The notes under the pieces: generated by a model
Seen by the model: the letters and a program-made list of their open reading frames with translations, nothing else
Told to the model about the DNA's origin: nothing
Database searches by the model: none
Source of the DNA: an uncultured Alphaproteobacteria bacterium
GTDB lineage: Bacteria > Pseudomonadota > Alphaproteobacteria > CAAHEQ01 > UBA3637
NCBI GenBank assembly: GCA_944390205.1
Contig: CALXPF010000001.1
Location: 1 to 49,917, forward strand
DNA: 49,917 nucleotides
Reading direction: 5' to 3'
Made by a program: the position numbers and the translations under genes
Part shown: positions 1 through 12,149 of the stretch, piece after piece
Layout of the letters: every line of letters begins with the position of its first letter
Numbering within the stretch: the first letter of the stretch is position 1

Positions 1-64
1 GGAGCGCTTTGTCATCCTCACCGCTATAAGCTTTACTGAACCACGCGTCTAACGCGTGGTTTTC
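1..64. repeat. Left arm of a 64-bp inverted repeat; the partner is the last 64 bp of the window (49853..49916)
   Basis: The reverse complement of 1..64 equals 49853..49916 at 63/64 positions; only pos 7 (C) versus 49910 (A) disagrees. Similarity stops exactly at 65 / 49852. The arm contains its own hairpin (39..61). Confidence 0.9.
39..64 (+). terminator. Intrinsic-terminator-like hairpin inside the left repeat arm
   Basis: AACCACGCG-TCTAA-CGCGTGGTT (9-bp stem) followed by TTTC. It could terminate a + strand transcript entering from the left edge. Frame 2 (2..52) is open and ends at TAA 50..52. Confidence 0.4.
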
Positions 65-74
65 TAGATACAAT

Positions 75-126
75 AAATCGACCGTACAATCGGTCGATTT
101 ATCTCAGAAAAACAAGATCGTTTTTC
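75..126 (-). terminator. Two consecutive hairpins just downstream of the asmA-like stop codon
   Basis: GAAAAAC-AAGATC-GTTTTTC (107..126), and a perfect 10-bp stem AAATCGACCG-TACAAT-CGGTCGATTT (75..100). The latter is followed on the - strand by TTATTGTAT. Confidence 0.4.
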
Positions 127-131
127 GTCTT

Positions 132-2684
132 TTAATAAGAATCCGCTCGTCGCTCGATAACCCCTCCGAAACCGGATCTTTGAGGGGTTGGTTGGATTTG
201 TTGTTGCAAGGCCTGTGCATCAAACCGATTCACGTACAAATAGGCCTTTTCAATTTTGCGGTACGCCTCGGCGGCCGCCGCGACTATCTTCTCTCCCTGC
301 TCTTGTGTCACATTTTGTTTCATCAATTGGTTTGCCTTTTGAATCGTTTCAATGTTTTTTTGAACGGCCGGAATTAACTTACCGATGATTTCAATTTCGG
401 GAGCGACTTGATACATTTGTTGCATACGGCCCAGCATTTCCTGACTTTGTTTTTCATAAACCAACAACGTTTTGCGATCTTCAAAGAAAATATCTTTTTC
501 GATTTCTTTCAAAGCCTCGTTTGCTTTTAAAACAGCCAATCTGGACTGTTCCATAATTTGAATGTATTGCGCATCCGTCAGATTTTCTTTGATGGCCATT
601 TCATTCATAATCGTCACGGCATCTTTGGCATTTTGCAATAGATAAGAAGCCTTGTCATTTGAAACTTCCATCAATCTGTTTTCAACCGAACGAACCGCCT
701 CATTGGCTGATTGAACGGCTTCCTTCATCTGGTTTTCACGCGTTTGTTGAGCCGCTTGAAGTGCTTGTGCCGTCATCTGCTCTTGTTGTCTTGCCTGTCT
801 GGCCGTTCCCTGATCCACAATCTGGGCAATCGCCATCGATAAGTCCGTAAAGTTCGTCTCATACGTTTTTTTCGAAGGCGTTCCCTTAATCAATAAAGCA
901 AACGGCGGTAAATGACTTAGCCCCTCCAAAGAAATCGGCATGGCGACATCTAAAGCTTGAGATGAGATTTTCCAAGACAACTGCATCGGATTGGAGTAAA
1001 CGCCTTTCGCTTTTAAAGACATATCCACAAAGCGAACAACTCCTTCAGAAATCGAAAATTTACCCATTATCGTATCAATAGCCGTCTTTCCCGAGCTCAG
1101 TAAACGCTTCATTTGATTTTCGAATGAGGCTTGCGTATCCATATTCTGAATAACAGATTGAGCCATCAACGGAACGGCAGATAAATCTACCCCGATCCAT
1201 TGGGCGTTATTAACGACAAGCTCTCCGCTTCCGTCTAACGAATTTAAAATCTCTGCCGGTGTTTTACCATGTCCGGAAGCATTTAATTTCAAAGAAGCAA
1301 AGCCGTTTCCGAAAGCCATTCTGTTTAACAACAAAAAGTCACTCCGAAGCGGAATATTCGTGATATCCGCTTCCACCTTTAAAATCGGCTCTTGAACAAA
1401 AGACAAGGAGCCGGAAACTTTAAACGGCGATGTTGCCTCACCCCGTTGTTCCCCCGACAAATCAACCAGTGTCAAAATTTTGTCCCGAACGGTTAAATAA
1501 CAAGAGGCATTTCTCAAATCTATCGTTTGATATAAAAATTGATCCGTATCCAACTTCATATCAATATCCCATGTTGCAAGCGCACTTAAATCCAACGGTT
1601 TTTGAGAATCTAACGGAGATCCCGTAAAGCCAAAAAGACCGTCCGGTAAAAATTTACTTGCATCAACCGAGGGGCTTGTCAAATGAGCCACCAGTTTTTG
1701 TCCTCCCTTGTCCGTAAACGCAATATCTCCGTTCAAGCGCTGAATGCCGACAGAAGTCGAGACATCGCTTAACGTAAAATCTTGAGCGGTTCCGTTTAAC
1801 GTCCCTTTCATTTTAAAAGATCCGTCCAGAGCCGGCAAGATCTTCTCTTGCGGATAAATCAATTGAAGCGCCGTTTGAAAATTCGGATGGGCGACATCCA
1901 AAACCAAGTTTTGATACAATGTCTGATTTTCACCCTCCACGATCGTTCCGTTTAAACGACCGTTAAAATCGGAAACCGTCGCCTGAGCCGAAACGTCCCA
2001 CTTGTTATCGACCATATTAAGCCGTGTTGTTAAGAATGTTTCCTCTGCCTTATTTAGCCAGTTCCATGCACTTGTCAATCCGGCACGTTGCATAAACAAG
2101 GGGGTTTGTTTGGCGGCAAAATCCAAAGCGAAATCCGAAATTTTCAAATGAGATCCCATTCCGCTGACAGATCCGGCGGCATTTAATGTAGCGGTAGCCA
2201 TATTTTGTAATTGCAACTTGTCAAAAGTTAAGACGCCCTTATTCAGTGTCGCCAATACTCCCGTTCTCGCAATCGGCAGATTCAAAAGAGTGGCTTCGGC
2301 TACTTCTAATCGAATTTGAGCATCAAAATCGTTTAACCGTGTTTCCTTTTCCAACTTTTGCTTCAACAACTTCGGAAGCTCTCCGATATCAATCGGCTGA
2401 GAGGGGGCTTTATACCCCAGATATGAGTCAAAATTTACATTTTTAGCTTTCAAATCAGCCACAAATGATACTCTTGGTTTTAAAGAGACCGAAATCGATC
2501 CGGAAACGGAGGAAGCATCAATTACCGCTTGATCCAACGCCAGTCGGAAAGTCGCTTCCGGCAGATAAACGACAGAGCCTTTAATCGTTGTTTTTTTTAA
2601 AAACTGATCCGGAACATGAGCAACGTCCAAACCGGACCACGTTAAAAGAGTCCTTAAATCCTTGGTGTCTAACCGAACAGCCAA
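132..2684 (-). CDS. AsmA-family outer-membrane-biogenesis/lipid-transfer protein, C-terminal ~900-codon part (downstream of an in-frame TAG)
   Basis: The ORF-track start is a TTG. The same frame stays open for 48 more codons upstream, up to the TAG that ends ORF 2829..3971. The sequence is a beta-rich Gly/Ser/Asn/Asp-type repeat with an AsmA C-terminal-type block 'LNASGHGKTPAEILNSLDGSGELVVNNAQWIGVDL'. Stop is TAA at 132..134. Confidence 0.6.
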   Translation of the reverse strand: MAVRLDTKDLRTLLTWSGLDVAHVPDQFLKKTTIKGSVVYLPEATFRLALDQAVIDASSVSGSISVSLKPRVSFVADLKAKNVNFDSYLGYKAPSQPIDIGELPKLLKQKLEKETRLNDFDAQIRLEVAEATLLNLPIARTGVLATLNKGVLTFDKLQLQNMATATLNAAGSVSGMGSHLKISDFALDFAAKQTPLFMQRAGLTSAWNWLNKAEETFLTTRLNMVDNKWDVSAQATVSDFNGRLNGTIVEGENQTLYQNLVLDVAHPNFQTALQLIYPQEKILPALDGSFKMKGTLNGTAQDFTLSDVSTSVGIQRLNGDIAFTDKGGQKLVAHLTSPSVDASKFLPDGLFGFTGSPLDSQKPLDLSALATWDIDMKLDTDQFLYQTIDLRNASCYLTVRDKILTLVDLSGEQRGEATSPFKVSGSLSFVQEPILKVEADITNIPLRSDFLLLNRMAFGNGFASLKLNASGHGKTPAEILNSLDGSGELVVNNAQWIGVDLSAVPLMAQSVIQNMDTQASFENQMKRLLSSGKTAIDTIMGKFSISEGVVRFVDMSLKAKGVYSNPMQLSWKISSQALDVAMPISLEGLSHLPPFALLIKGTPSKKTYETNFTDLSMAIAQIVDQGTARQARQQEQMTAQALQAAQQTRENQMKEAVQSANEAVRSVENRLMEVSNDKASYLLQNAKDAVTIMNEMAIKENLTDAQYIQIMEQSRLAVLKANEALKEIEKDIFFEDRKTLLVYEKQSQEMLGRMQQMYQVAPEIEIIGKLIPAVQKNIETIQKANQLMKQNVTQEQGEKIVAAAAEAYRKIEKAYLYVNRFDAQALQQQIQPTPQRSGFGGVIERRADSY

Positions 2685-2828
2685 TTTTAAATTTTTCTGT
2701 TTTTCAATAAATCCCGTTTGCCCCGAGAAGGAAAAAGATGTTTTTCCGGGTAAAACGGCTTTTCCGTTTTGAACGCTGAACCGATTATCCGTGAAGATAA
2801 TATCGGCAGATACGTCTTTAATTGTATC

Positions 2829-3965
2829 CTATCCGATTTTAAGATTCTGAATCGCCGTTTTTAACGTAAGCTCTTTATTTTTAAAATCTTCGGAAGGCGT
2901 CAACACGAGTTTTTCAAACCGATCAAAAAAAGGAGCCCACAACGCATAATCAATTTGATTAAGGGCCACCCCGCCTTTAAAAACTTCTTGTGTCCCTTGC
3001 AGGGTTCGAGATAAGCTACCCGTCAAAGCAACCGCATCATCACTGTCCCCCAACCGAACGGTAATACTTTTAAGAGCATCCGAAAGCGGTGTTAATTCAA
3101 GACCCAAATTCCCGACGGACGGTTTATTTAAACTCTCATGAATGGTCGGTAATTGAAGCGCACTTAACAAGGTATTCGGGGCAGTTAATGAAAACGATCC
3201 GTCTGCCGTCATAAAGCGGGTCCGATCATCCGGCGTGAAAGCGCCCGTTAAATCCATATTCAAGCCACTTTGTTTTTCTTTTAAGTTTAAAGAAAAATCT
3301 ATCGGTGTATCATTTTTGAGCCGTTTCATATCAAAGGAGGCAAAAATAGTCTGCTTTAACAAATTACCCTGCCCGTTAAAACGATAAGGGCCCTTTAAAG
3401 AATCCAATGATAAATCGCCGTTTATTTTTTCAATCATCATTGAAACACCGGTTATCTCGTTAACATATTCTACCGAACCGTTTTCTATCGTGAGCTGATC
3501 GATTTTTGTCTGATTCACTTGCGTTGTCGTATTCATCAACATATTTTTATCGATCAGATCATCTTGAGCCGAAAAAAACGGGAAATTCCAGTTAGAGCGA
3601 TTATCCGCCAATCGCTCCAAAACAAAATGAGGTTGCTCAACATGAATAGACTTGACGACAAGCGGTGTTTTGAATAAAGATTCCCACTCAATTTGAACCG
3701 AGACGGTCTTTGCCGTCATCATCATCTGACGCGGACTTCCCGTCTGATTGGTTAAACTGACATCAGACAACACAAGTGTCGGCAACGGGAACCATTTAAA
3801 GGACGTGTTTCCTCTGATCGAAAACGTTCGTCCGGTCAATTCGGATACCGTTTGAACGACTTGTTGTTGATAATTTCCGGCATTAAAAGAACGAATAAAG
3901 AAAAACGCGAGACCACCCAAAAGACATAAAACCAGAATAAAAAAAGTAGTTAAAAATTTTTTCAT
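2829..3965 (-). CDS. AsmA-family protein, N-terminal part (membrane anchor plus start of periplasmic domain), ending at TAG in frame with 132..2684
   Basis: N-terminal TM helix 'FLTTFFILVLCLLGGLAFFFI' followed by beta-rich sequence. The SD AAGAGG abuts the first ATG (3971), so the second ATG (3965, MKKFL...) is the likelier start. Stop is TAG at 2829..2831. Confidence 0.6.
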   Translation of the reverse strand: MKKFLTTFFILVLCLLGGLAFFFIRSFNAGNYQQQVVQTVSELTGRTFSIRGNTSFKWFPLPTLVLSDVSLTNQTGSPRQMMMTAKTVSVQIEWESLFKTPLVVKSIHVEQPHFVLERLADNRSNWNFPFFSAQDDLIDKNMLMNTTTQVNQTKIDQLTIENGSVEYVNEITGVSMMIEKINGDLSLDSLKGPYRFNGQGNLLKQTIFASFDMKRLKNDTPIDFSLNLKEKQSGLNMDLTGAFTPDDRTRFMTADGSFSLTAPNTLLSALQLPTIHESLNKPSVGNLGLELTPLSDALKSITVRLGDSDDAVALTGSLSRTLQGTQEVFKGGVALNQIDYALWAPFFDRFEKLVLTPSEDFKNKELTLKTAIQNLKIG

Positions 3966-4086
3966 GCGCATCCTCTTTCAAACTATTTTTTTTACTTATA
4001 GCACACCCCCCCTTTTTTGAAAAGAGTTTTTTTCTCTTTTTTCTGCTTTCTCGACAAAAAAAACTTACATAAAAACAAAAAAATAT

Positions 4087-5547
4087 TTAGGCGTTTTTCT
4101 TCCATAAAAACGGGAAGCAAACAACAATAATGGCGATAAATTCCAAGCGCCCCAACAACATCGCCACGGACAAGATCCATTTGGCCCCCTCGGGAAGTGC
4201 CGCAAAGCTTTGATCCGGACCGATTATATCACCCAGCGCCGGTCCGACATTTGAAATCGCCGTGATAGCTCCCGATAAAGACGTCACAAGATCCAAATCA
4301 TAGAGCGACAATCCCAACGTCGTTAAAACAAGAGTGATAAAGAATAAGCCCAAATACACCAAAACACTCACGACAATTTCATCCGTCACCGGTTTTTCTC
4401 CGTATCTCGGCACAAAAACGCCATGGGGTTGAACATGACTTTTTAATTTTGCCACAATCGTCTTCCCCAAAATGGAAAAACGAAACATTTTTATTCCTCC
4501 CGACGTAGATCCCGTACAAGCCCCCAACGACATGAGGAACAAGAAGAAAACAACCGAAAAAGTTCCCCAATTTTCAAAATTTTCCGTCACAAATCCGGTA
4601 GAAGTCACAACCGAAACGACACTAAACGCCGTAGAGCGAATGACATCATGAATAGATCCCTGAAAAGAAGTTTCATAGAACCGAACACTTGACATAATAA
4701 AAACGGCAGTCAACAAAACAATCAGATATAATTTAATTTGTTCGTTATTTTTAACGGGTCGCCACTGTCTTTTAAACAAATAAAGTCCCAAAATCAACGG
4801 CAATCCCCCGATCACCATAAATATGATTAAAATCCATTCAATGAGGGGGTTTTTAAAATAAGCGATAGAAGCATCATGTGTGGAAAATCCGGCGGTTGAT
4901 AGCGTGCTCATGGCATGATTCACGGAATCAAAAATACCCATTCCGGCTCCCCATAAGCACACGGCACACAAACCGGTCATTCCGACAAAATAAATAATGA
5001 TCGGCCACATGCTTTTAGCAATCGTCGTTGTGTCCCGTTCCGATTCGGCCGATGATTCCGTTGCAAAGAACTGCATTCCGCCGATATGAAGTGTCGGCAA
5101 AATCAAAATAGCCACCATGATAATACCGATTCCGCCCATATACTCGGTTAAAGATCTCCAAAACAACAGCCCCGGAGACATATGATCTAAATTTGTTAGA
5201 ACGGTTGCGCCCGTTGTCGTCAACCCCGAAACAGACTCAAAAAAGGAATCTCCGAATGAGAGCTGATAACCCGAAAAATAAATAGGCAACGCACAAAAAA
5301 AGGAGTATGCGAACCAAACGATTGTTGTCGTTAAAAACATCTCTTTGGTTCGAAGAGGGGTTTTGACCTGATCCGTAATCAGCAAAATAATCGATCCGAC
5401 ACACACGGTGACGGCGGATATAATGGAAAACCGAGAAGCCGAATCATACTGCTTATAAAAAAAATCAACGCCGGCCGGCAATATCATGCTTAAACCACAA
5501 ACAACCGTGATAAACCCAACTATCGAAAAAATCAGTCGAAACCGCAT
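4087..5547 (-). CDS. trkH: Trk-type potassium uptake membrane protein TrkH
   Basis: Polytopic membrane protein with four pore-loop-like motifs: 'GLTTTGATV', 'LSTAGFST', 'VTSTGF', 'TGSTSGGIKMFRF'. ATG 5547 is preceded by GAGGG; the ORF-track start at 5598 is a TTG. Confidence 0.85.
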   Translation of the reverse strand: MRFRLIFSIVGFITVVCGLSMILPAGVDFFYKQYDSASRFSIISAVTVCVGSIILLITDQVKTPLRTKEMFLTTTIVWFAYSFFCALPIYFSGYQLSFGDSFFESVSGLTTTGATVLTNLDHMSPGLLFWRSLTEYMGGIGIIMVAILILPTLHIGGMQFFATESSAESERDTTTIAKSMWPIIIYFVGMTGLCAVCLWGAGMGIFDSVNHAMSTLSTAGFSTHDASIAYFKNPLIEWILIIFMVIGGLPLILGLYLFKRQWRPVKNNEQIKLYLIVLLTAVFIMSSVRFYETSFQGSIHDVIRSTAFSVVSVVTSTGFVTENFENWGTFSVVFFLFLMSLGACTGSTSGGIKMFRFSILGKTIVAKLKSHVQPHGVFVPRYGEKPVTDEIVVSVLVYLGLFFITLVLTTLGLSLYDLDLVTSLSGAITAISNVGPALGDIIGPDQSFAALPEGAKWILSVAMLLGRLEFIAIIVVCFPFLWKKNA

Positions 5548-5656
5548 TATTCCCTCATCTTTTTGGCCTATCTTATTTTTAATTCTTTTAAAATGCAATA
5601 AAAAAGTGTATACCTAAAATAAAGAGAGATGAATGGACGGGAAAACAGGATAAACC

Positions 5657-6322
5657 ATGAAATATTTTGACGCACATATGCACGTTGTTGACGTTAAATT
5701 GATTTATGAGGCTCAGCGAAAAGACGTTAGCACGTTTATTTGCAACGCGACTTCTCAAAAAGATTGGAATGCCGTTTTGAGTCTATCGGATCAGATACCC
5801 GGCGTTTACGCCTGTTTGGGCATCCATCCGTGGTATGTTAATACGGTTTCCGATGATTGGCGATCCCGCTTAGAAGCCTATTTAAAGTATCGTCCCAATC
5901 TAATGATCGGAGAAATCGGATTGGATTTATTAAAACCGGACTTTGAGCGTCAAAAAGAGGTGTTTCGTTCTTCTTTGGAACTTGCGTCACAATACAATCG
6001 AACGGTTCATATTCATTGTGTTAAAGCGTGGGATGCCCTTTTTGAAATTTTATCCGAATTTAAAAATCTCAACTGTCTTTTCCATCGTTTTTCCGGCGAT
6101 GCCGTTGTCGCTCAAAAATTAAGATTTACCAATTCGTTTTTTTCGGTTATGAATAAAAACGTGCTGGATATTCTGCCGGATAATCGTATTTTGGTTGAAT
6201 CGGATTCACCGGACGGCATTCGATCTCCCGCTTTTATTCCGGAACTGGTCGAAAAGCTCCGGTTGGATCCCTCTTATTTGGCTGAGAATTTTGAAGAATT
6301 TATCACACGAATCGGATCATAA
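5657..6322 (+). CDS. tatD: TatD-family metal-dependent hydrolase/DNase
   Basis: 'FDAHMHV', 'GEIGLD', 'VHIHCV', 'LVESDSP' motifs in TatD order; 221 aa. Confidence 0.75.
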   Translation: MKYFDAHMHVVDVKLIYEAQRKDVSTFICNATSQKDWNAVLSLSDQIPGVYACLGIHPWYVNTVSDDWRSRLEAYLKYRPNLMIGEIGLDLLKPDFERQKEVFRSSLELASQYNRTVHIHCVKAWDALFEILSEFKNLNCLFHRFSGDAVVAQKLRFTNSFFSVMNKNVLDILPDNRILVESDSPDGIRSPAFIPELVEKLRLDPSYLAENFEEFITRIGS

Positions 6323-6335
6323 GGAAATAACGTTT

Positions 6336-7115
6336 ATGTCGGAAACATTTTTATCGCGAACACAATTACTGCTGGGGGAAGACGCCGTTCAAAAATTTCA
6401 ACAATCGTGCGTTATGGTGGTCGGATGCGGTGCCGTAGGCGGTTTTGCGGTTGAGGCGCTTGTCAGAGCCGGAATCGGATCTCTCATTTTGGTGGATTTC
6501 GATGTTGTCAAACCAAGCAACGCCAATCGTCAACTGGCTGCGACACAGGAAACGCTGGGACTAAAAAAAACGCATGTTTTAGCCCGACACGCCAAACAAA
6601 TCAATTCCGACATTCAAATTAAAATTTTAGATATGCTCGTTAATGATGAGACTATTGATATTTTGCTGGCACATTCGACCGATTACATTATTGATGCCAT
6701 TGACTCGCTCAATTCCAAAACGCTTTTGATCGAAAAATTGGTGAAGCGGAATCGCCCGTTTATTTCATCAATGGGAGCCGCCCTCCGAACCGATCCAAGC
6801 AAAATTCAGATTGTTCCGCTCAAAAAAACAATTGAATGCCCGTTGGCTGCCTTTTTACGAAAAAGATTAAGAAGACGCGGTGTTTCTTTAAATTTTCCGG
6901 TCGTCTACTCATCGGAACATTTAACGTCAACTATTGGGCTGGGTGAAATGGCAGAAAATGATCTACCGGGCGGAAGAAATCGTCATACGTTGGGATCTCT
7001 CTCCACCATTCCGGGGATTTTCGGCCTTTTATGCGCCCATTATGTTTTGATGGCTCTCAAAAATCAACCGCCTCAAAACTCGACAACAAACACAATTATT
7101 TCTGCTGAAGGATAA
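6336..7115 (+). CDS. tcdA: tRNA threonylcarbamoyladenosine dehydratase (ThiF/HesA family, TcdA/CsdL-like)
   Basis: 'VVGCGAVGGFAVEALVRAGIGSLILVDFDVVKPSNANRQ' Rossmann/ThiF motif, with the rest collinear with TcdA ('DYIIDAIDS', 'ECPLAAFLRKRLR'). The internal ATG 6336 with AAGGA upstream avoids overlapping tatD. Confidence 0.75.
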   Translation: MSETFLSRTQLLLGEDAVQKFQQSCVMVVGCGAVGGFAVEALVRAGIGSLILVDFDVVKPSNANRQLAATQETLGLKKTHVLARHAKQINSDIQIKILDMLVNDETIDILLAHSTDYIIDAIDSLNSKTLLIEKLVKRNRPFISSMGAALRTDPSKIQIVPLKKTIECPLAAFLRKRLRRRGVSLNFPVVYSSEHLTSTIGLGEMAENDLPGGRNRHTLGSLSTIPGIFGLLCAHYVLMALKNQPPQNSTTNTIISAEG

Positions 7116-7118
7116 ATA

Positions 7119-9506
7119 ATGGATATTTTTGATTTAGAAGATCTCCCCACCATCAATCGGGAAACGGCTGAGACAGAACCACCTTTTTTAGCCGATTTAA
7201 ATCCGGAACAACGACAAGCCGTTCTGACAACGGAAGGACCTTTATTGGTTTTATCCGGCGCCGGAACCGGAAAAACAAAAGTTTTAACAACACGAATTGC
7301 ATTTCTCATTTACCAAAAGCTGGCAAGACCATGGCAAATTTTGGCGGTCACCTTTACCAATAAAGCTTCTCGAGAAATGAAAGAACGATTAGAAGCGATG
7401 ATCGGCGCAGACGCTCGATCGGTTTGGCTCGGAACTTTTCATTCGATCGGTGTCAAAATTATTAACAAATACGCCCCGTTGTTAGGACTGGAATCTAATT
7501 TTATCGTTCTGGGAACGGATGATCAAGAGCGTCTTTTAAAACAAATTTTATCAGATGCCGGCGTTGATACAAAAAAATATCCCCCCGCCACTTTATTGGA
7601 TATCATTCAACGCTGGAAGGATAAAGGCCTTCCCCCCGAATCCGTCACATCGGCATACAACACAACCTTTTGTGATGGACGGGCATTAGAATTTTATCAA
7701 ACGTATCAACGCCGTTTAAAAGCGTTAAATGCGGTTGATTTCGGTGATTTATTACTGCTGCCACTTCTCCTTTTTCAAAGCCATCCCGACATTTTAGAAA
7801 CATATCAAAATCAATTTAAATATATCTTAGTGGACGAATATCAAGACACAAATATCGCACAGTATCTTTTACTCAGATTGCTCGCTCAAAAAAACAGAAA
7901 TATTTGTTGTGTCGGAGATGATGATCAATCCATCTATTCGTGGCGTGGGGCGGAAGTGGAAAATATTTTAAGTTTTCAAACAATTTTTAAAGACGCTCTT
8001 CTTATTCGATTGGAACGAAATTATCGATCCACATCCCATATTTTGGGAGCGGCTTCCGGCCTCATCAGCCATAATGCGGGGCGATTGGGAAAAACGTTAA
8101 GAGTTGCCGACGCCCAAATAGATTCGGGAGAAAAGGTTATTGTTCATGGCTTTTGGAACGGAGAACAAGAGGCCGAAACAATCGTGGAAGAAATCGAAAA
8201 TGCTCACCGCTTGGGAACGCCCTTGTCGCATATGGCCATTTTAGTCAGAGCCGGTTTTCAAACACGTGCTTTTGAAGAAGTCTTAATGCGCTACGGCGTC
8301 CCTTATAAAATTATCGGGGGCTTTAAATTCTATGAACGGGAAGAAATTAAAGATGCCATTGCTTATCTGCGACTGATTTCCAATACAAATGATGATTTAG
8401 CGTTTATGAGAATCATCAACAAACCCAGACGAGGAGTCGGTGATCAAGCCATGCAATCATTGACGAGCACGGCAAAAGAAAAGCATATCAGCCTTTATAA
8501 CGCTATTGCTTGGTCCGCTTTAAGACCCACTCTTCGAAAAACATTGGACGCTTTTATTGAACAAGTTAAAAACTGGCAACAACAGTCTCAGACATTGGAA
8601 CCGAAAATCCTTTTACAACAAATTTTAGAAGAATCCGGATATCTAACACTTTGGCGTCAAGAAAAATCAATTGATTCCGAAACACGTTTGGAAAACTTAA
8701 CAGAACTTTATAATGTATTGGGTGAATTTCAAAACATTCGTGACTTTATAGAATATGCTTCTTTAGTGACGGACACGGATGAAAAAACGGATGGAGATCA
8801 ACTCGTCGTCATGACGCTTCATGCCTCAAAGGGACTTGAATTTGATCAGGTTTATCTCCCCGGTTGGGAGGAAGGCCTTTTCCCGCATCAAAAAGCAATA
8901 GACGAATCCGGCGATTTCGGATTGGAGGAAGAACGACGTTTGGCCTATGTCGGATTAACAAGAGCCAGAAAACGAGCCTTTATTTCATTTGCCCAAAACA
9001 GACGCGTGTACGGACAATGGCAATCGGCCGTTGCCAGTCGCTTCATTGATGAATTACCCCCTGAGCATATCAACAACGAAACACAAGCGGAAATGGGCGG
9101 ATATCACATGAAGCTGACGGATATAGAGGTCTCTCGTTCACGCTCTGAAACAACATCATGGGGAAAAAGCTCTTTCCAAATATCCGGCAATCGTTTCAAA
9201 AAAGATCTTCCCATCTTTGGATCTCGACATCGTCTCAAACAAAACAATTTATTTTGGAGCAAAAATTCTTCATTGAATGATGATGACACCGCAGAGATCG
9301 ACTCGATGTGGGAAACTGATTTCAATCAAAATTCTGTTTTAACCGCCTCTCGCCCCCCAAAATCTCGTCGCCTCGGGAAAAGAGTCTATCACGAAAATTT
9401 CGGATACGGAACGGTTGTTAAAGAAGAAGGAAACCGTCTTGACGTTCGATTTGATTCTGTCGGAATCAAAAAAGTATTGGCTCGTTATCTGGAAGAAATT
9501 ACATAA
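7119..9506 (+). CDS. uvrD: UvrD/PcrA/Rep-family ATP-dependent DNA helicase II
   Basis: 'LNPEQRQAV', Walker A 'GAGTGKTKV', 'VDEYQDTN', 'GDDDQSIYSWRGA', 'RNYRS', 'TLHASKGLEFD', 'EERRLAYVGLTRAR'. C-terminal Tudor-like 'GKRVYHENFGYGTV'. Confidence 0.9.
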   Translation: MDIFDLEDLPTINRETAETEPPFLADLNPEQRQAVLTTEGPLLVLSGAGTGKTKVLTTRIAFLIYQKLARPWQILAVTFTNKASREMKERLEAMIGADARSVWLGTFHSIGVKIINKYAPLLGLESNFIVLGTDDQERLLKQILSDAGVDTKKYPPATLLDIIQRWKDKGLPPESVTSAYNTTFCDGRALEFYQTYQRRLKALNAVDFGDLLLLPLLLFQSHPDILETYQNQFKYILVDEYQDTNIAQYLLLRLLAQKNRNICCVGDDDQSIYSWRGAEVENILSFQTIFKDALLIRLERNYRSTSHILGAASGLISHNAGRLGKTLRVADAQIDSGEKVIVHGFWNGEQEAETIVEEIENAHRLGTPLSHMAILVRAGFQTRAFEEVLMRYGVPYKIIGGFKFYEREEIKDAIAYLRLISNTNDDLAFMRIINKPRRGVGDQAMQSLTSTAKEKHISLYNAIAWSALRPTLRKTLDAFIEQVKNWQQQSQTLEPKILLQQILEESGYLTLWRQEKSIDSETRLENLTELYNVLGEFQNIRDFIEYASLVTDTDEKTDGDQLVVMTLHASKGLEFDQVYLPGWEEGLFPHQKAIDESGDFGLEEERRLAYVGLTRARKRAFISFAQNRRVYGQWQSAVASRFIDELPPEHINNETQAEMGGYHMKLTDIEVSRSRSETTSWGKSSFQISGNRFKKDLPIFGSRHRLKQNNLFWSKNSSLNDDDTAEIDSMWETDFNQNSVLTASRPPKSRRLGKRVYHENFGYGTVVKEEGNRLDVRFDSVGIKKVLARYLEEIT

Positions 9507-9508
9507 AC

Positions 9509-10027
9509 CTATATATCACAAAAATTCAAATTGCAAGAATCCGGCGTTTTATAAAATTCAAATGTCATTTCATTTTTTTCTTCGGAACAAGCCTCTGCAA
9601 CGGATATAGCATCCACCCCCGGAATTCCGTCAAAAATGACCTGCTTTCCATTCACGCGAATATAACGAGGCGTTGTCCAATCCGAGTTCAAAACCTGCTC
9701 ACAAACACCTTTTGTCACATCACTCACCGTAAATCCGAAAAAATCGACCCCTACAACCTGATAAGTCGTTAATCCATTTCCATTTCGAATATGATCGGGA
9801 ATACTACTGACATCCAAATCACCCCCTCGAATCATTTGAGAGCTTAAATCCACCACATAGTAATTCAATTCTGCAATTAAATCATTCGCTTTTAATTTAT
9901 TCATTCCCCATTGATATCCGGCAATTCCAACCAAAGACAATACTCCCATGATAACCAAAACACCTAACATTTCCGTCATGGTCCGACCTTGTTCTTCTGC
10001 AAGAGGGTGAGTTTGAAAGTGTTTCAT
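9509..10027 (-). CDS. Orphan type-IV-pilin/pseudopilin-like protein (short paralogue of 34514..36331)
   Basis: Short charged leader, then 'G RTMTEMLGVLVIMGVLSLVGIAGY': Gly, Glu at +5, and a ~20-residue hydrophobic helix. The full length is collinear with residues ~23-185 of the 605-aa ORF, including the C-terminal 'C..N.C[DE]I'. AAGGAG SD; TAG stop. Confidence 0.6.
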   Translation of the reverse strand: MKHFQTHPLAEEQGRTMTEMLGVLVIMGVLSLVGIAGYQWGMNKLKANDLIAELNYYVVDLSSQMIRGGDLDVSSIPDHIRNGNGLTTYQVVGVDFFGFTVSDVTKGVCEQVLNSDWTTPRYIRVNGKQVIFDGIPGVDAISVAEACSEEKNEMTFEFYKTPDSCNLNFCDI

Positions 10028-10201
10028 GTCAAATCTCCTTATCCATCCATAGAGGGAAGTTTACAAAAAGATTCAAAAAAATACAACAAAAAATTATGAA
10101 GAGTCGATTTCTCGCATCGTCTTATGATTTTCCCAAATAAACGCTTGCGTCTTTTGGAAAAATTCGATACACTCTAAGTCAATTTATCAAAAAGGCTTCA
10201 A

Positions 10202-11449
10202 ATGATTTTTTCAAAGACAGAACGACTTTTGGCATTCAGATATTTAAAATCTCGCAAGAGAACAGGCTTTGTTTCCGTGATCACGGGTTTTTCGTTTTTG
10301 GGAATTATGCTCGGCGTTGCAACGCTGATTATCGTGATGAGTGTTATGAACGGATTCAGAGCAGAGTTAATGGGACGTGTTTTGGGGTTAAACGGCGAAT
10401 TCGGTATTTATCCCTCTTGGGGATCTCAATTATCCGATTCGGAGGTTTATTTACAACGACTCAAAACCCTTCCCAATATTGAACAAGTCGTTCCGGTCAT
10501 TGACGGGCAAGTGATGGCCTCTTCACCGGAAACCTCTGCCGGTGTTATGGTTCGAGGAATCAGACAAGCCGATTTTCAAAAAAGATCTTTATTGATAGAC
10601 AAATATCAAGGACTTCCGATTGAAGAGCTGGCCGATGACGGGATTGTCGTGGGATGGCGACTGGCACGCAAGTTGGGCGTTCGTGCCGGAGACACGCTCA
10701 CGCTTGTTTCTCCGAAAGGGAACATTACGGCGTTTGGCACCATTCCCAAAATGAAAGCGTTTACGGTTATCGGGACATTTGATACCGGCATGTTTGAATA
10801 TGACGGGAACTTTATTTTTATGCCGCTTTTACAAGCCCAACGTTTTTTTGCCTATGGAGATAAAATTTCCCATTTGGAGGTCTTTGTCAAGGATCGTGAC
10901 CAATTAACAAACACAATCGAATCTGCTTTTCCGCTAATCGGCAATAATGCACAAATACACGACTGGCGCTATACCAATCAAGCCTTTTTTAATGCCATTG
11001 AAGTCGAACGAAACGTAATGTTTTTAATTTTAACCTTAATCATTATCGTGGCAGCATTCAACATGATTTCGGGATTGGTTATGCTGGTTCAGGACAAGAC
11101 AAAAGATATCGCGGTTTTACGAACGATGGGGATGAAAAAAGGGGCGATTCAACGTATTTTTCTGATGTCCGGCTTAACGGTCGGGCTGATGGGGACGATT
11201 GCGGGAGTTATTTTAGGACTTTTGTTCTCTTATAATATTGATGCTATTAAAGAAGCATTGGAAAACTTATCCGGAACCGAATTATTTGCCGCAGAAATTT
11301 ATTTTCTCTCTCATTTGCCGGCCAAGGTTGATTTAACGGAAGTTTCTCTCATCGGAGGCATGTCACTTTTGCTCTCCCTTTTGGCAACGCTTTATCCTTC
11401 TTGGAAGGCCAGCAAGACAGATCCCGTGGAGGCTTTACGTTATGAATAG
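10202..11449 (+). CDS. lolC: Lipoprotein-releasing ABC transporter permease (LolC/LolE family)
   Basis: FtsX-type permease with a large periplasmic loop after TM1 and the conserved end '...[16 protein letters not shown]'. It overlaps lolD (ATGAATAG). Confidence 0.85.
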   Translation: MIFSKTERLLAFRYLKSRKRTGFVSVITGFSFLGIMLGVATLIIVMSVMNGFRAELMGRVLGLNGEFGIYPSWGSQLSDSEVYLQRLKTLPNIEQVVPVIDGQVMASSPETSAGVMVRGIRQADFQKRSLLIDKYQGLPIEELADDGIVVGWRLARKLGVRAGDTLTLVSPKGNITAFGTIPKMKAFTVIGTFDTGMFEYDGNFIFMPLLQAQRFFAYGDKISHLEVFVKDRDQLTNTIESAFPLIGNNAQIHDWRYTNQAFFNAIEVERNVMFLILTLIIIVAAFNMISGLVMLVQDKTKDIAVLRTMGMKKGAIQRIFLMSGLTVGLMGTIAGVILGLLFSYNIDAIKEALENLSGTELFAAEIYFLSHLPAKVDLTEVSLIGGMSLLLSLLATLYPSWKASKTDPVEALRYE

Positions 11450-12149
11450 AACTATTTTAAAAGCACCCTGTTTGGAGCTCAATAAAATTGCACGTATTTA
11501 CGGGAAAGGCGAAACAAAGCTGACGGTATTGAAAGAAGTCGATTTAACCATCCGTTCCGGAGAAATTGTTGCATTGGTCGGCCCGTCCGGCTCGGGAAAA
11601 TCAACACTCTTACATATTGCGGGTCTTTTAGACACCCCCACAAAAGGTAAAATTTTTATTCAAGGAATGGATATGTCAAAAGCCAGAGACGGCCTGCGAA
11701 CACAAATGAGACAAAAAGCAATCGGCTTTGTTTATCAATCCCATTTATTGCTCCCTGATTTTAACGCATTAGAAAATGTAATGTTGCCACAACTCATTGC
11801 CGGTGTATCGTTCAAGCAAGCACGTCAAAAGGCAGAAGCCTTACTGGATCGCGTAGGTCTTAAAAATCGATTAACGCACCGATCCGGTCAATTATCGGGC
11901 GGAGAACAACAACGCGTCGCCATTGCCAGAGCTTTAGCAAACGATCCCGCCCTTTTATTGGCAGACGAACCAACCGGTAATTTGGATCCTCAAACATCCG
12001 AATCCGTTTTTGAAATGCTCTTATCCATGGTTCGGGAGACAGGCTTATCCGCATTAATTGCAACCCACAATCCCGATTTAGCCCATCGAATGGATCGACA
12101 AGTGAGTGTCGTGGATGGGTGTCTGATCGAAAGAGGTCAAGATGCTTGA
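11442..12149 (+). CDS. lolD: Lipoprotein-releasing ABC transporter ATP-binding protein LolD
   Basis: Walker A 'GPSGSGKST', signature '[15 protein letters not shown]', Walker B '[12 protein letters not shown]'. Directly downstream of, and overlapping, lolC. Confidence 0.9.

Follow-up and report, generated by a model that had tools for sequence, protein, structure and literature searches.

An AsmA-like lipid-bridge gene of an uncultured gut alphaproteobacterium interrupted by one in-frame TAG, a candidate young nonsense allele

AsmA-like bridge proteins are proposed, in passages of PMC8593681, PMC8912898, PMC11126948 and PMC13507460, to transport phospholipids from the inner to the outer membrane by way of a continuous hydrophobic groove, and according to the same passages the AsmA-like proteins of E. 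coli are redundant yet jointly essential. A gene of this kind with a stop codon inside its frame lies on a contig of an uncultured Alphaproteobacteria bacterium (GenBank assembly GCA_944390205.1, contig CALXPF010000001.1); the window analysed here is this complete contig, of 49,917 bp. One gene occupies the locus and encodes an AsmA-like lipid-transfer protein of the bridge type, with an inner-membrane anchor, a continuous hydrophobic beta-groove of ~1000 residues and a lineage-specific helical tail. The TAG that interrupts the gene at codon 379 is, on balance, best read as a genuine and evolutionarily very young singleton nonsense allele.

Translation of the minus strand of the window from 3971 to 132 gives 1279 codons with TAG 2831..2829 as the sole internal stop, just as the first-pass annotation had it. 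The two open reading frames (ORFs) on either side, 2829..3971 (380 aa from ATG 3971) and 132..2684 (850 aa from a TTG), are in the same frame, and the 48 sense codons that had been quoted as bridging them (DTIKDV...KNLK) are exactly so and run into the TTG. In the deposited annotation the pieces appear as distinct proteins, one of 378 aa and one of 850 aa. The frame of ORF 2829..3971 had been assigned correctly, but its start at ATG 3971 is doubtful: ATG 3965 is preferred because the Shine-Dalgarno sequence AAGAGG stands 6 nt upstream of it and abuts ATG 3971 directly, because MKKF is the N-terminus of all orthologues, and because the deposited call is of 378 aa. The true gene is therefore probably 3965..132 (1277 codons). 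The premature stop, in the context GGA TAG GAT, is codon 379 counted from ATG 3965 and codon 381 counted from ATG 3971. Chance juxtaposition of two frames does not account for this arrangement, since the read-through product matches single proteins, 1267-1383 aa in length, from one end to the other.

These single proteins number 14 and are 33-36% identical to the read-through product over 96-100% coverage; the protein of a sister lineage, 1277 aa in length, is 93% identical to it. For the sister lineage four variants of the protein were recovered, all of them intact. They are encoded on five contigs, drawn from four independent Logan samples and from a GTDB representative metagenome-assembled genome (MAG), and this MAG was the sole match of a single-protein scan. 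The sister genes are 3834 nt long like that of the window, with zero indels and 87.9-89.7% nucleotide identity over the five contigs, and every one of the five has a serine codon where the window has TAG, so that the codon proved to be a sense codon in the orthologues compared. All 18 relatives retrieved possess single full-length genes and none has a stop at this site (0/18). The first-pass view of one AsmA-family gene instead of two is thereby upheld, and consistently split orthologues, which it had named as the pattern that would tell against it, were found in none of the 18. The column that contains the stop is variable in the family alignment (Ser, Asp, Gly, Lys, Asn and others). The frame is disrupted relative to the intact orthologues of close relatives, which is one mark of a pseudogene.

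The piece upstream of the stop matches the Pfam AsmA family (PF05170) with 87.1 bits (cut-off 29.8, E 1.6e-24, profile positions 4-195) and DUF748 (PF05359) with 56 bits, and the downstream piece matches positions 440-603 of the AsmA profile with 26.2 bits, just below the cut-off for the fragment alone; the intact relatives carry precomputed PF05170 and PF05359. The protein scores 25.2 bits against the YhdP equivalog TIGR02099 (NCBIfam cut-off 519.15) and 19.5 bits against the E. coli AsmA equivalog NF008091 (NCBIfam cut-off 412), and is assigned to neither; the DUF490 domain of TamB had no match in the AsmA-like protein. AlphaFold2 models computed from an 18-sequence alignment of the read-through frame, with predicted local distance difference test scores (pLDDT) of 84.6 and 83.5, have a helix at residues 2-26, unbroken long beta-strands from residue 48 to ~1039, and then a helical tail. 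The N-terminal anchor coincides with a Kyte-Doolittle maximum of 2.94 (15-residue window) at ILVLCLLGGLAFFFI, and a Foldseek comparison of the N-terminal model with PDB structures ranks LPD-3, a bridge-like lipid transporter of eukaryotes, first (E 2e-12, probability 1.0). The modelled groove is long enough to span the periplasm only in the read-through frame, and the product up to the stop would have about one third of it. The stop is predicted to sit in a beta-hairpin turn between strands 364-377 and 380-392 (pLDDT 91-95), where it would cut a continuous sheet instead of separating domains.

The helical tail (window 135-848, minus strand) is modelled as one helix of ~60 residues and five of ~25 residues, with pLDDT mostly 80-90. 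It is kept in all 14 orthologues, including a LLQNAxDAL...LAIKENLT block, it belongs to no Pfam family, and it may serve, for example, as a partner-binding or outer-membrane-proximal module. The features of the gene are collected in Table 1.

Table 1. Features of the interrupted AsmA-like gene and its surroundings, in window coordinates
Feature	Coordinates	Strand	Remarks
Whole frame of the AsmA-like gene	132..3965	-	1277 codons and a TAA stop (134..132), one interruption; collinear with 14 orthologues and with the 1277-aa genes of the sister lineage
Shine-Dalgarno sequence AAGAGG	3972..3977	-	6 nt upstream of ATG 3965
N-terminal transmembrane anchor, residues 2-26	3888..3962	-	AlphaFold2 helix; Kyte-Doolittle maximum
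Upstream piece, 378 codons (anchor and first third of the beta-groove)	2832..3965	-	Pfam AsmA, DUF748
Premature TAG	2829..2831	-	Serine codon in all five sister contigs; turn between strands 364-377 and 380-392
Bridging stretch of 48 sense codons, from the TAG up to TTG 2684	2685..2828	-	Without ATG, GTG, TTG or Shine-Dalgarno sequence; dN/dS 0.105
Rest of the beta-groove 3' of the stop, residues 380 to ~1039	849..2828	-	AlphaFold2 strands; Pfam AsmA C-terminal region, 26.2 bits
C-terminal helical tail, residues ~1040-1277, with conserved RGxIxR end	135..848	-	AlphaFold2; present in all orthologues; no Pfam match
Shared end point of two other assemblies of the same strain	2865	.	34 nt 5' of the TAG in the sense of the gene

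The ratio of nonsynonymous to synonymous divergence (dN/dS, by the Nei-Gojobori method, window against sister lineage) is 0.039 upstream of the stop (dS 0.61) and 0.086 downstream of it (dS 0.43), and both values fall in the range of 0.034-0.088 that is covered by the neighbouring genes for TrkH (0.034, dS 0.61), TatD (0.044, dS 0.59) and UvrD (0.088, dS 0.24); the 48 codons directly after the TAG have a dN/dS of 0.105. Of the downstream alignment columns, 52 are invariant in the family, with one residue shared by the 14 other sequences, and the window has that residue in every one of them. No further lesion was found in the 898 codons that follow the TAG, these being free of a second stop and of any indel relative to the sister lineage, and relaxed selection, as would mark the decay of a pseudogene, was not detected downstream. 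As many as 402 possible single-base changes in these 898 codons would create a stop, and the absence of a second stop puts a ceiling of ~0.022 substitutions per site (95%) on neutral drift, lower still if indels are counted; this ceiling amounts to a few per cent of the distance between the lineages (dS 0.43-0.61). The lack of downstream decay implies that the stop is either extremely young or not real. The first-pass proposal of recent pseudogenisation therefore holds insofar as the event, if real, was very recent; its further remark that this is expected under genome reduction is not supported, for ORFs of 120 aa or longer take up 89% of the window and no other long frame in it is interrupted in the manner of the AsmA-like gene, other same-frame neighbours being ordinary adjacent genes. 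With genes for an arylsulfotransferase, a sulfatase, a 5'-nucleotidase, a major facilitator superfamily transporter, an amidohydrolase and alanyl-tRNA synthetase, the window does not look like part of a decaying genome.

Divergence from the sister lineage is mosaic over window positions 132-960, the 3' quarter of the AsmA-like gene (for example at 439-640): codons 1001-1278 have a dS of 0.04-0.18, against 0.42-0.86 in the remaining gene, and identical runs of 202, 124 and 122 nt in the 3' third are common to the window and contigs L001 and L003. The tract of low dS looks like recent recombination between the two lineages; the dS of UvrD is likewise below the ~0.6 of TrkH and TatD.

The same strain was found elsewhere, by way of the neighbouring TatD, on an ENA scaffold of 44,966 bp (L004, ERZ28614322) and on a Logan contig of 5,115 bp (L005, ERR4096375). 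From 2865 onward the Logan contig does not differ from the window, nor does the ENA scaffold over 2865-11239; at 11240 the scaffold has a single differing base, and from 11382 it has a scaffold gap. The shared end at 2865, a position that also differs between the window and the sister lineage, suggests a graph branch, a coverage gap or heterogeneity at that point, and keeps alive both an error and a segregating variant; a structural variant may also be the cause. No contig besides the window spans the site in the collections searched. Exact look-ups of the 380-aa and 378-aa products gave no match; a fragment-sized homology search across the junction also gave none and carries little weight, as does the negative result of a search with the N-terminal piece, which missed the cut product of 367 aa on L004 and L005 too. 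Two pattern scans of JGI metagenomes did not find the site, and the sample accessions had no relevant match in the literature searched. At the 3' end of lolCE (window 11240 and 11382-11450) the ENA scaffold has a gap of N followed by out-of-register sequence, and its LolCE is called as 430 aa instead of 415 aa, so that this assembly is of modest quality there.

If the TAG is real, a nonsense mutation has been fixed, or is still segregating, in the sampled population. Translation would then yield the anchor and the initial third of the groove, a fragment of 378 residues that presumably falls short of the outer membrane; the 898 codons beyond the stop, having neither a start nor an export signal, would be unmade or their product left in the cytoplasm, and the allele would be null. 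The TAG base is taken to be present in the reads, as k-mer assemblies should need read support for the TAG path, and the truncated product is presumably non-functional, its loss perhaps tolerated through redundancy of AsmA-like paralogues by analogy with E. coli (passages of PMC8593681 and PMC8912898). A real allele is favoured over an error on base rates, because substitution errors are rare in short-read consensus sequences and single-lesion pseudogenes are common. Three observations weigh on the other side: the stop is present on one contig only; both other assemblies of the strain end at 2865, 34 nt before the TAG, which leaves the base without independent confirmation; and absent downstream decay is equally to be expected from an error. 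It is possible, though less probable, that the TAG arose from an error in base calling, in polishing or in the consensus, or from a minority variant taken up into the consensus of the MAG, and that the gene of the organism is intact and of full length. Such an error would agree with a singleton stop of which every other copy is intact, with a downstream part that is free of any decay, with the assembly ends 34 nt upstream and the N gaps nearby in the ENA scaffold, which would fit thin or heterogeneous coverage of this organism, and with the runs of 202, 124 and 122 nt identical between lineages in the 3' third, by which an assembler could be misled if populations were mixed. In a short-read assembly, however, a substitution would be an uncommon consensus error, as an indel would not, and the flanks of the codon are collinear and lineage-specific on both sides, with no sign of a chimeric join. 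That a real allele was itself favoured by selection in the gut population, for example as an escape from a phage or host factor that uses the envelope bridge, is quite unlikely; the graph break 34 nt away in the second sample would then reflect coexisting intact and broken haplotypes, and adaptive inactivation would strike AsmA-like paralogues repeatedly.

Whether the downstream piece could be made despite a real stop depends on how TAG is read and on what follows it. TAG is a normal stop elsewhere in the window, as had been claimed: the LolCE product of 415 aa matches positions 2-411 of a 411-position profile and ends at TAG 11447..11449, and among 37 ORFs of the window the stops are TAA in 26, TAG in six and TGA in five, TAG ending five ORFs besides the AsmA-like gene. 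Full-length protein might still be produced, through near-cognate decoding at a leaky stop or with an amber-suppressor tRNA encoded elsewhere in the genome, and the allele would then be a hypomorph and not a null. The perfectly preserved downstream frame and the position of the stop in a variable column within a turn, where any inserted residue would probably be tolerated, are consistent with this, but the former is explained equally by recency, an efficient suppressor would be costly given the five other ORFs that end in TAG (LolCE at the exact end of its profile), no tRNA gene was found in the window, and none of the 18 relatives conserves the stop as programmed read-through would lead one to expect. 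A G after the stop makes a comparatively efficient termination context in E. coli, which also counts against read-through. Read-through is thus unlikely, and the stop itself is unlikely to be a programmed signal or to have any other function. Decoding of TAG as an amino acid, by code reassignment or as pyrrolysine, has nothing to recommend it beyond the open frame, and its probability is negligible: TAG ends conserved genes at their expected ends, the in-frame TAG is the only one inside a long gene in 50 kb, and the aligned residue in relatives is Ser, Asp, Gly, Lys or Asn and not a conserved special residue. The first-pass annotation had judged reassignment unlikely, and the end of LolCE, the stop usage and the lone in-frame TAG effectively refute it together with pyrrolysine.

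A functional split, in which two separately translated pieces assemble into a working bridge, had been listed among the options by the first-pass annotation and agrees with the two genes of 378 aa and 850 aa in the deposited annotation. It is very unlikely. The first ATG, GTG or TTG after the TAG is TTG 2684, 144 nt (48 codons) on, which is preceded by AAAAACAGAAAAATTTAAAA without a Shine-Dalgarno sequence, and the first start with a Shine-Dalgarno-like sequence is ~150 codons downstream of the TAG, so the earlier remark that the second half lacks such signals was accurate. A promoter and terminator scan of positions 1..4300 gave match counts equal to those of shuffled sequence and no support for a second transcription unit. 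No hydrophobic leader or anchor was found in the downstream piece (Kyte-Doolittle maximum 1.23, against 2.94 at the N-terminus), and judging from its sequence it could not reach the periplasm. No orthologue is split, and the cut would fall in a hairpin turn inside the continuous sheet of the modelled groove. The preferred reading is still that of a recent nonsense mutation.

Elsewhere in the window, a ThiF-family ORF (6195-7115, plus strand) is listed from TTG 6195 (306 aa) and overlaps TatD, and the call in relatives, of 259 aa, would place the start at 6336. A 64-nt terminator-like element is repeated, in inverted orientation, at the two ends of the contig (window 1-64 and 49853-49916). A hairpin of similar layout and different stem is found at the end of asmA in the sister lineage, and the sister Logan contigs L001, L002, L006 and L007 end ~155-200 nt downstream of asmA; these contig ends point to a dispersed repeat where assemblers break.

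The interruption is an ordinary finding of an already known kind and matters little. At most, one envelope lipid-bridge protein has been lost from this strain, or seems to have been, and such proteins are usually several and redundant; the stop needs the support of reads before inferences on envelope biology are drawn from it. For annotation, the deposited ORFs of 378 aa and 850 aa are one interrupted AsmA-like gene. The protein family is of more interest than the stop, being an AsmA-like bridge with a conserved helical tail of ~240 residues in uncultured gut Alphaproteobacteria.

Compared with programmed read-through and recoding (selenocysteine, pyrrolysine and prfB-type), the likeness is superficial and goes no further than one stop within a long frame that is intact apart from it; the stop of the window is unconserved and falls on a variable residue of a loop, and neither a recoding element nor a tRNA was seen. 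Recent single-lesion pseudogenes of bacterial genomes and MAGs resemble it more fully, with one disabling substitution, intact nearest orthologues and no added decay, although the case in the window is on present evidence indistinguishable from an assembly error and no relaxed selection is detectable yet. The protein differs from the E. coli AsmA-like proteins in that it is not a YhdP or AsmA equivalog, has no TamB DUF490 match, and carries a helical tail of ~240 residues without a Pfam family as well as the premature stop. YhdP, of ~1266 aa, is close in size to the product of the window gene. With E. coli YhdP, TamB, YdbH, AsmA, YhjG and YicH the protein shares the membrane anchor, the Pfam AsmA matches and a long continuous beta-groove.

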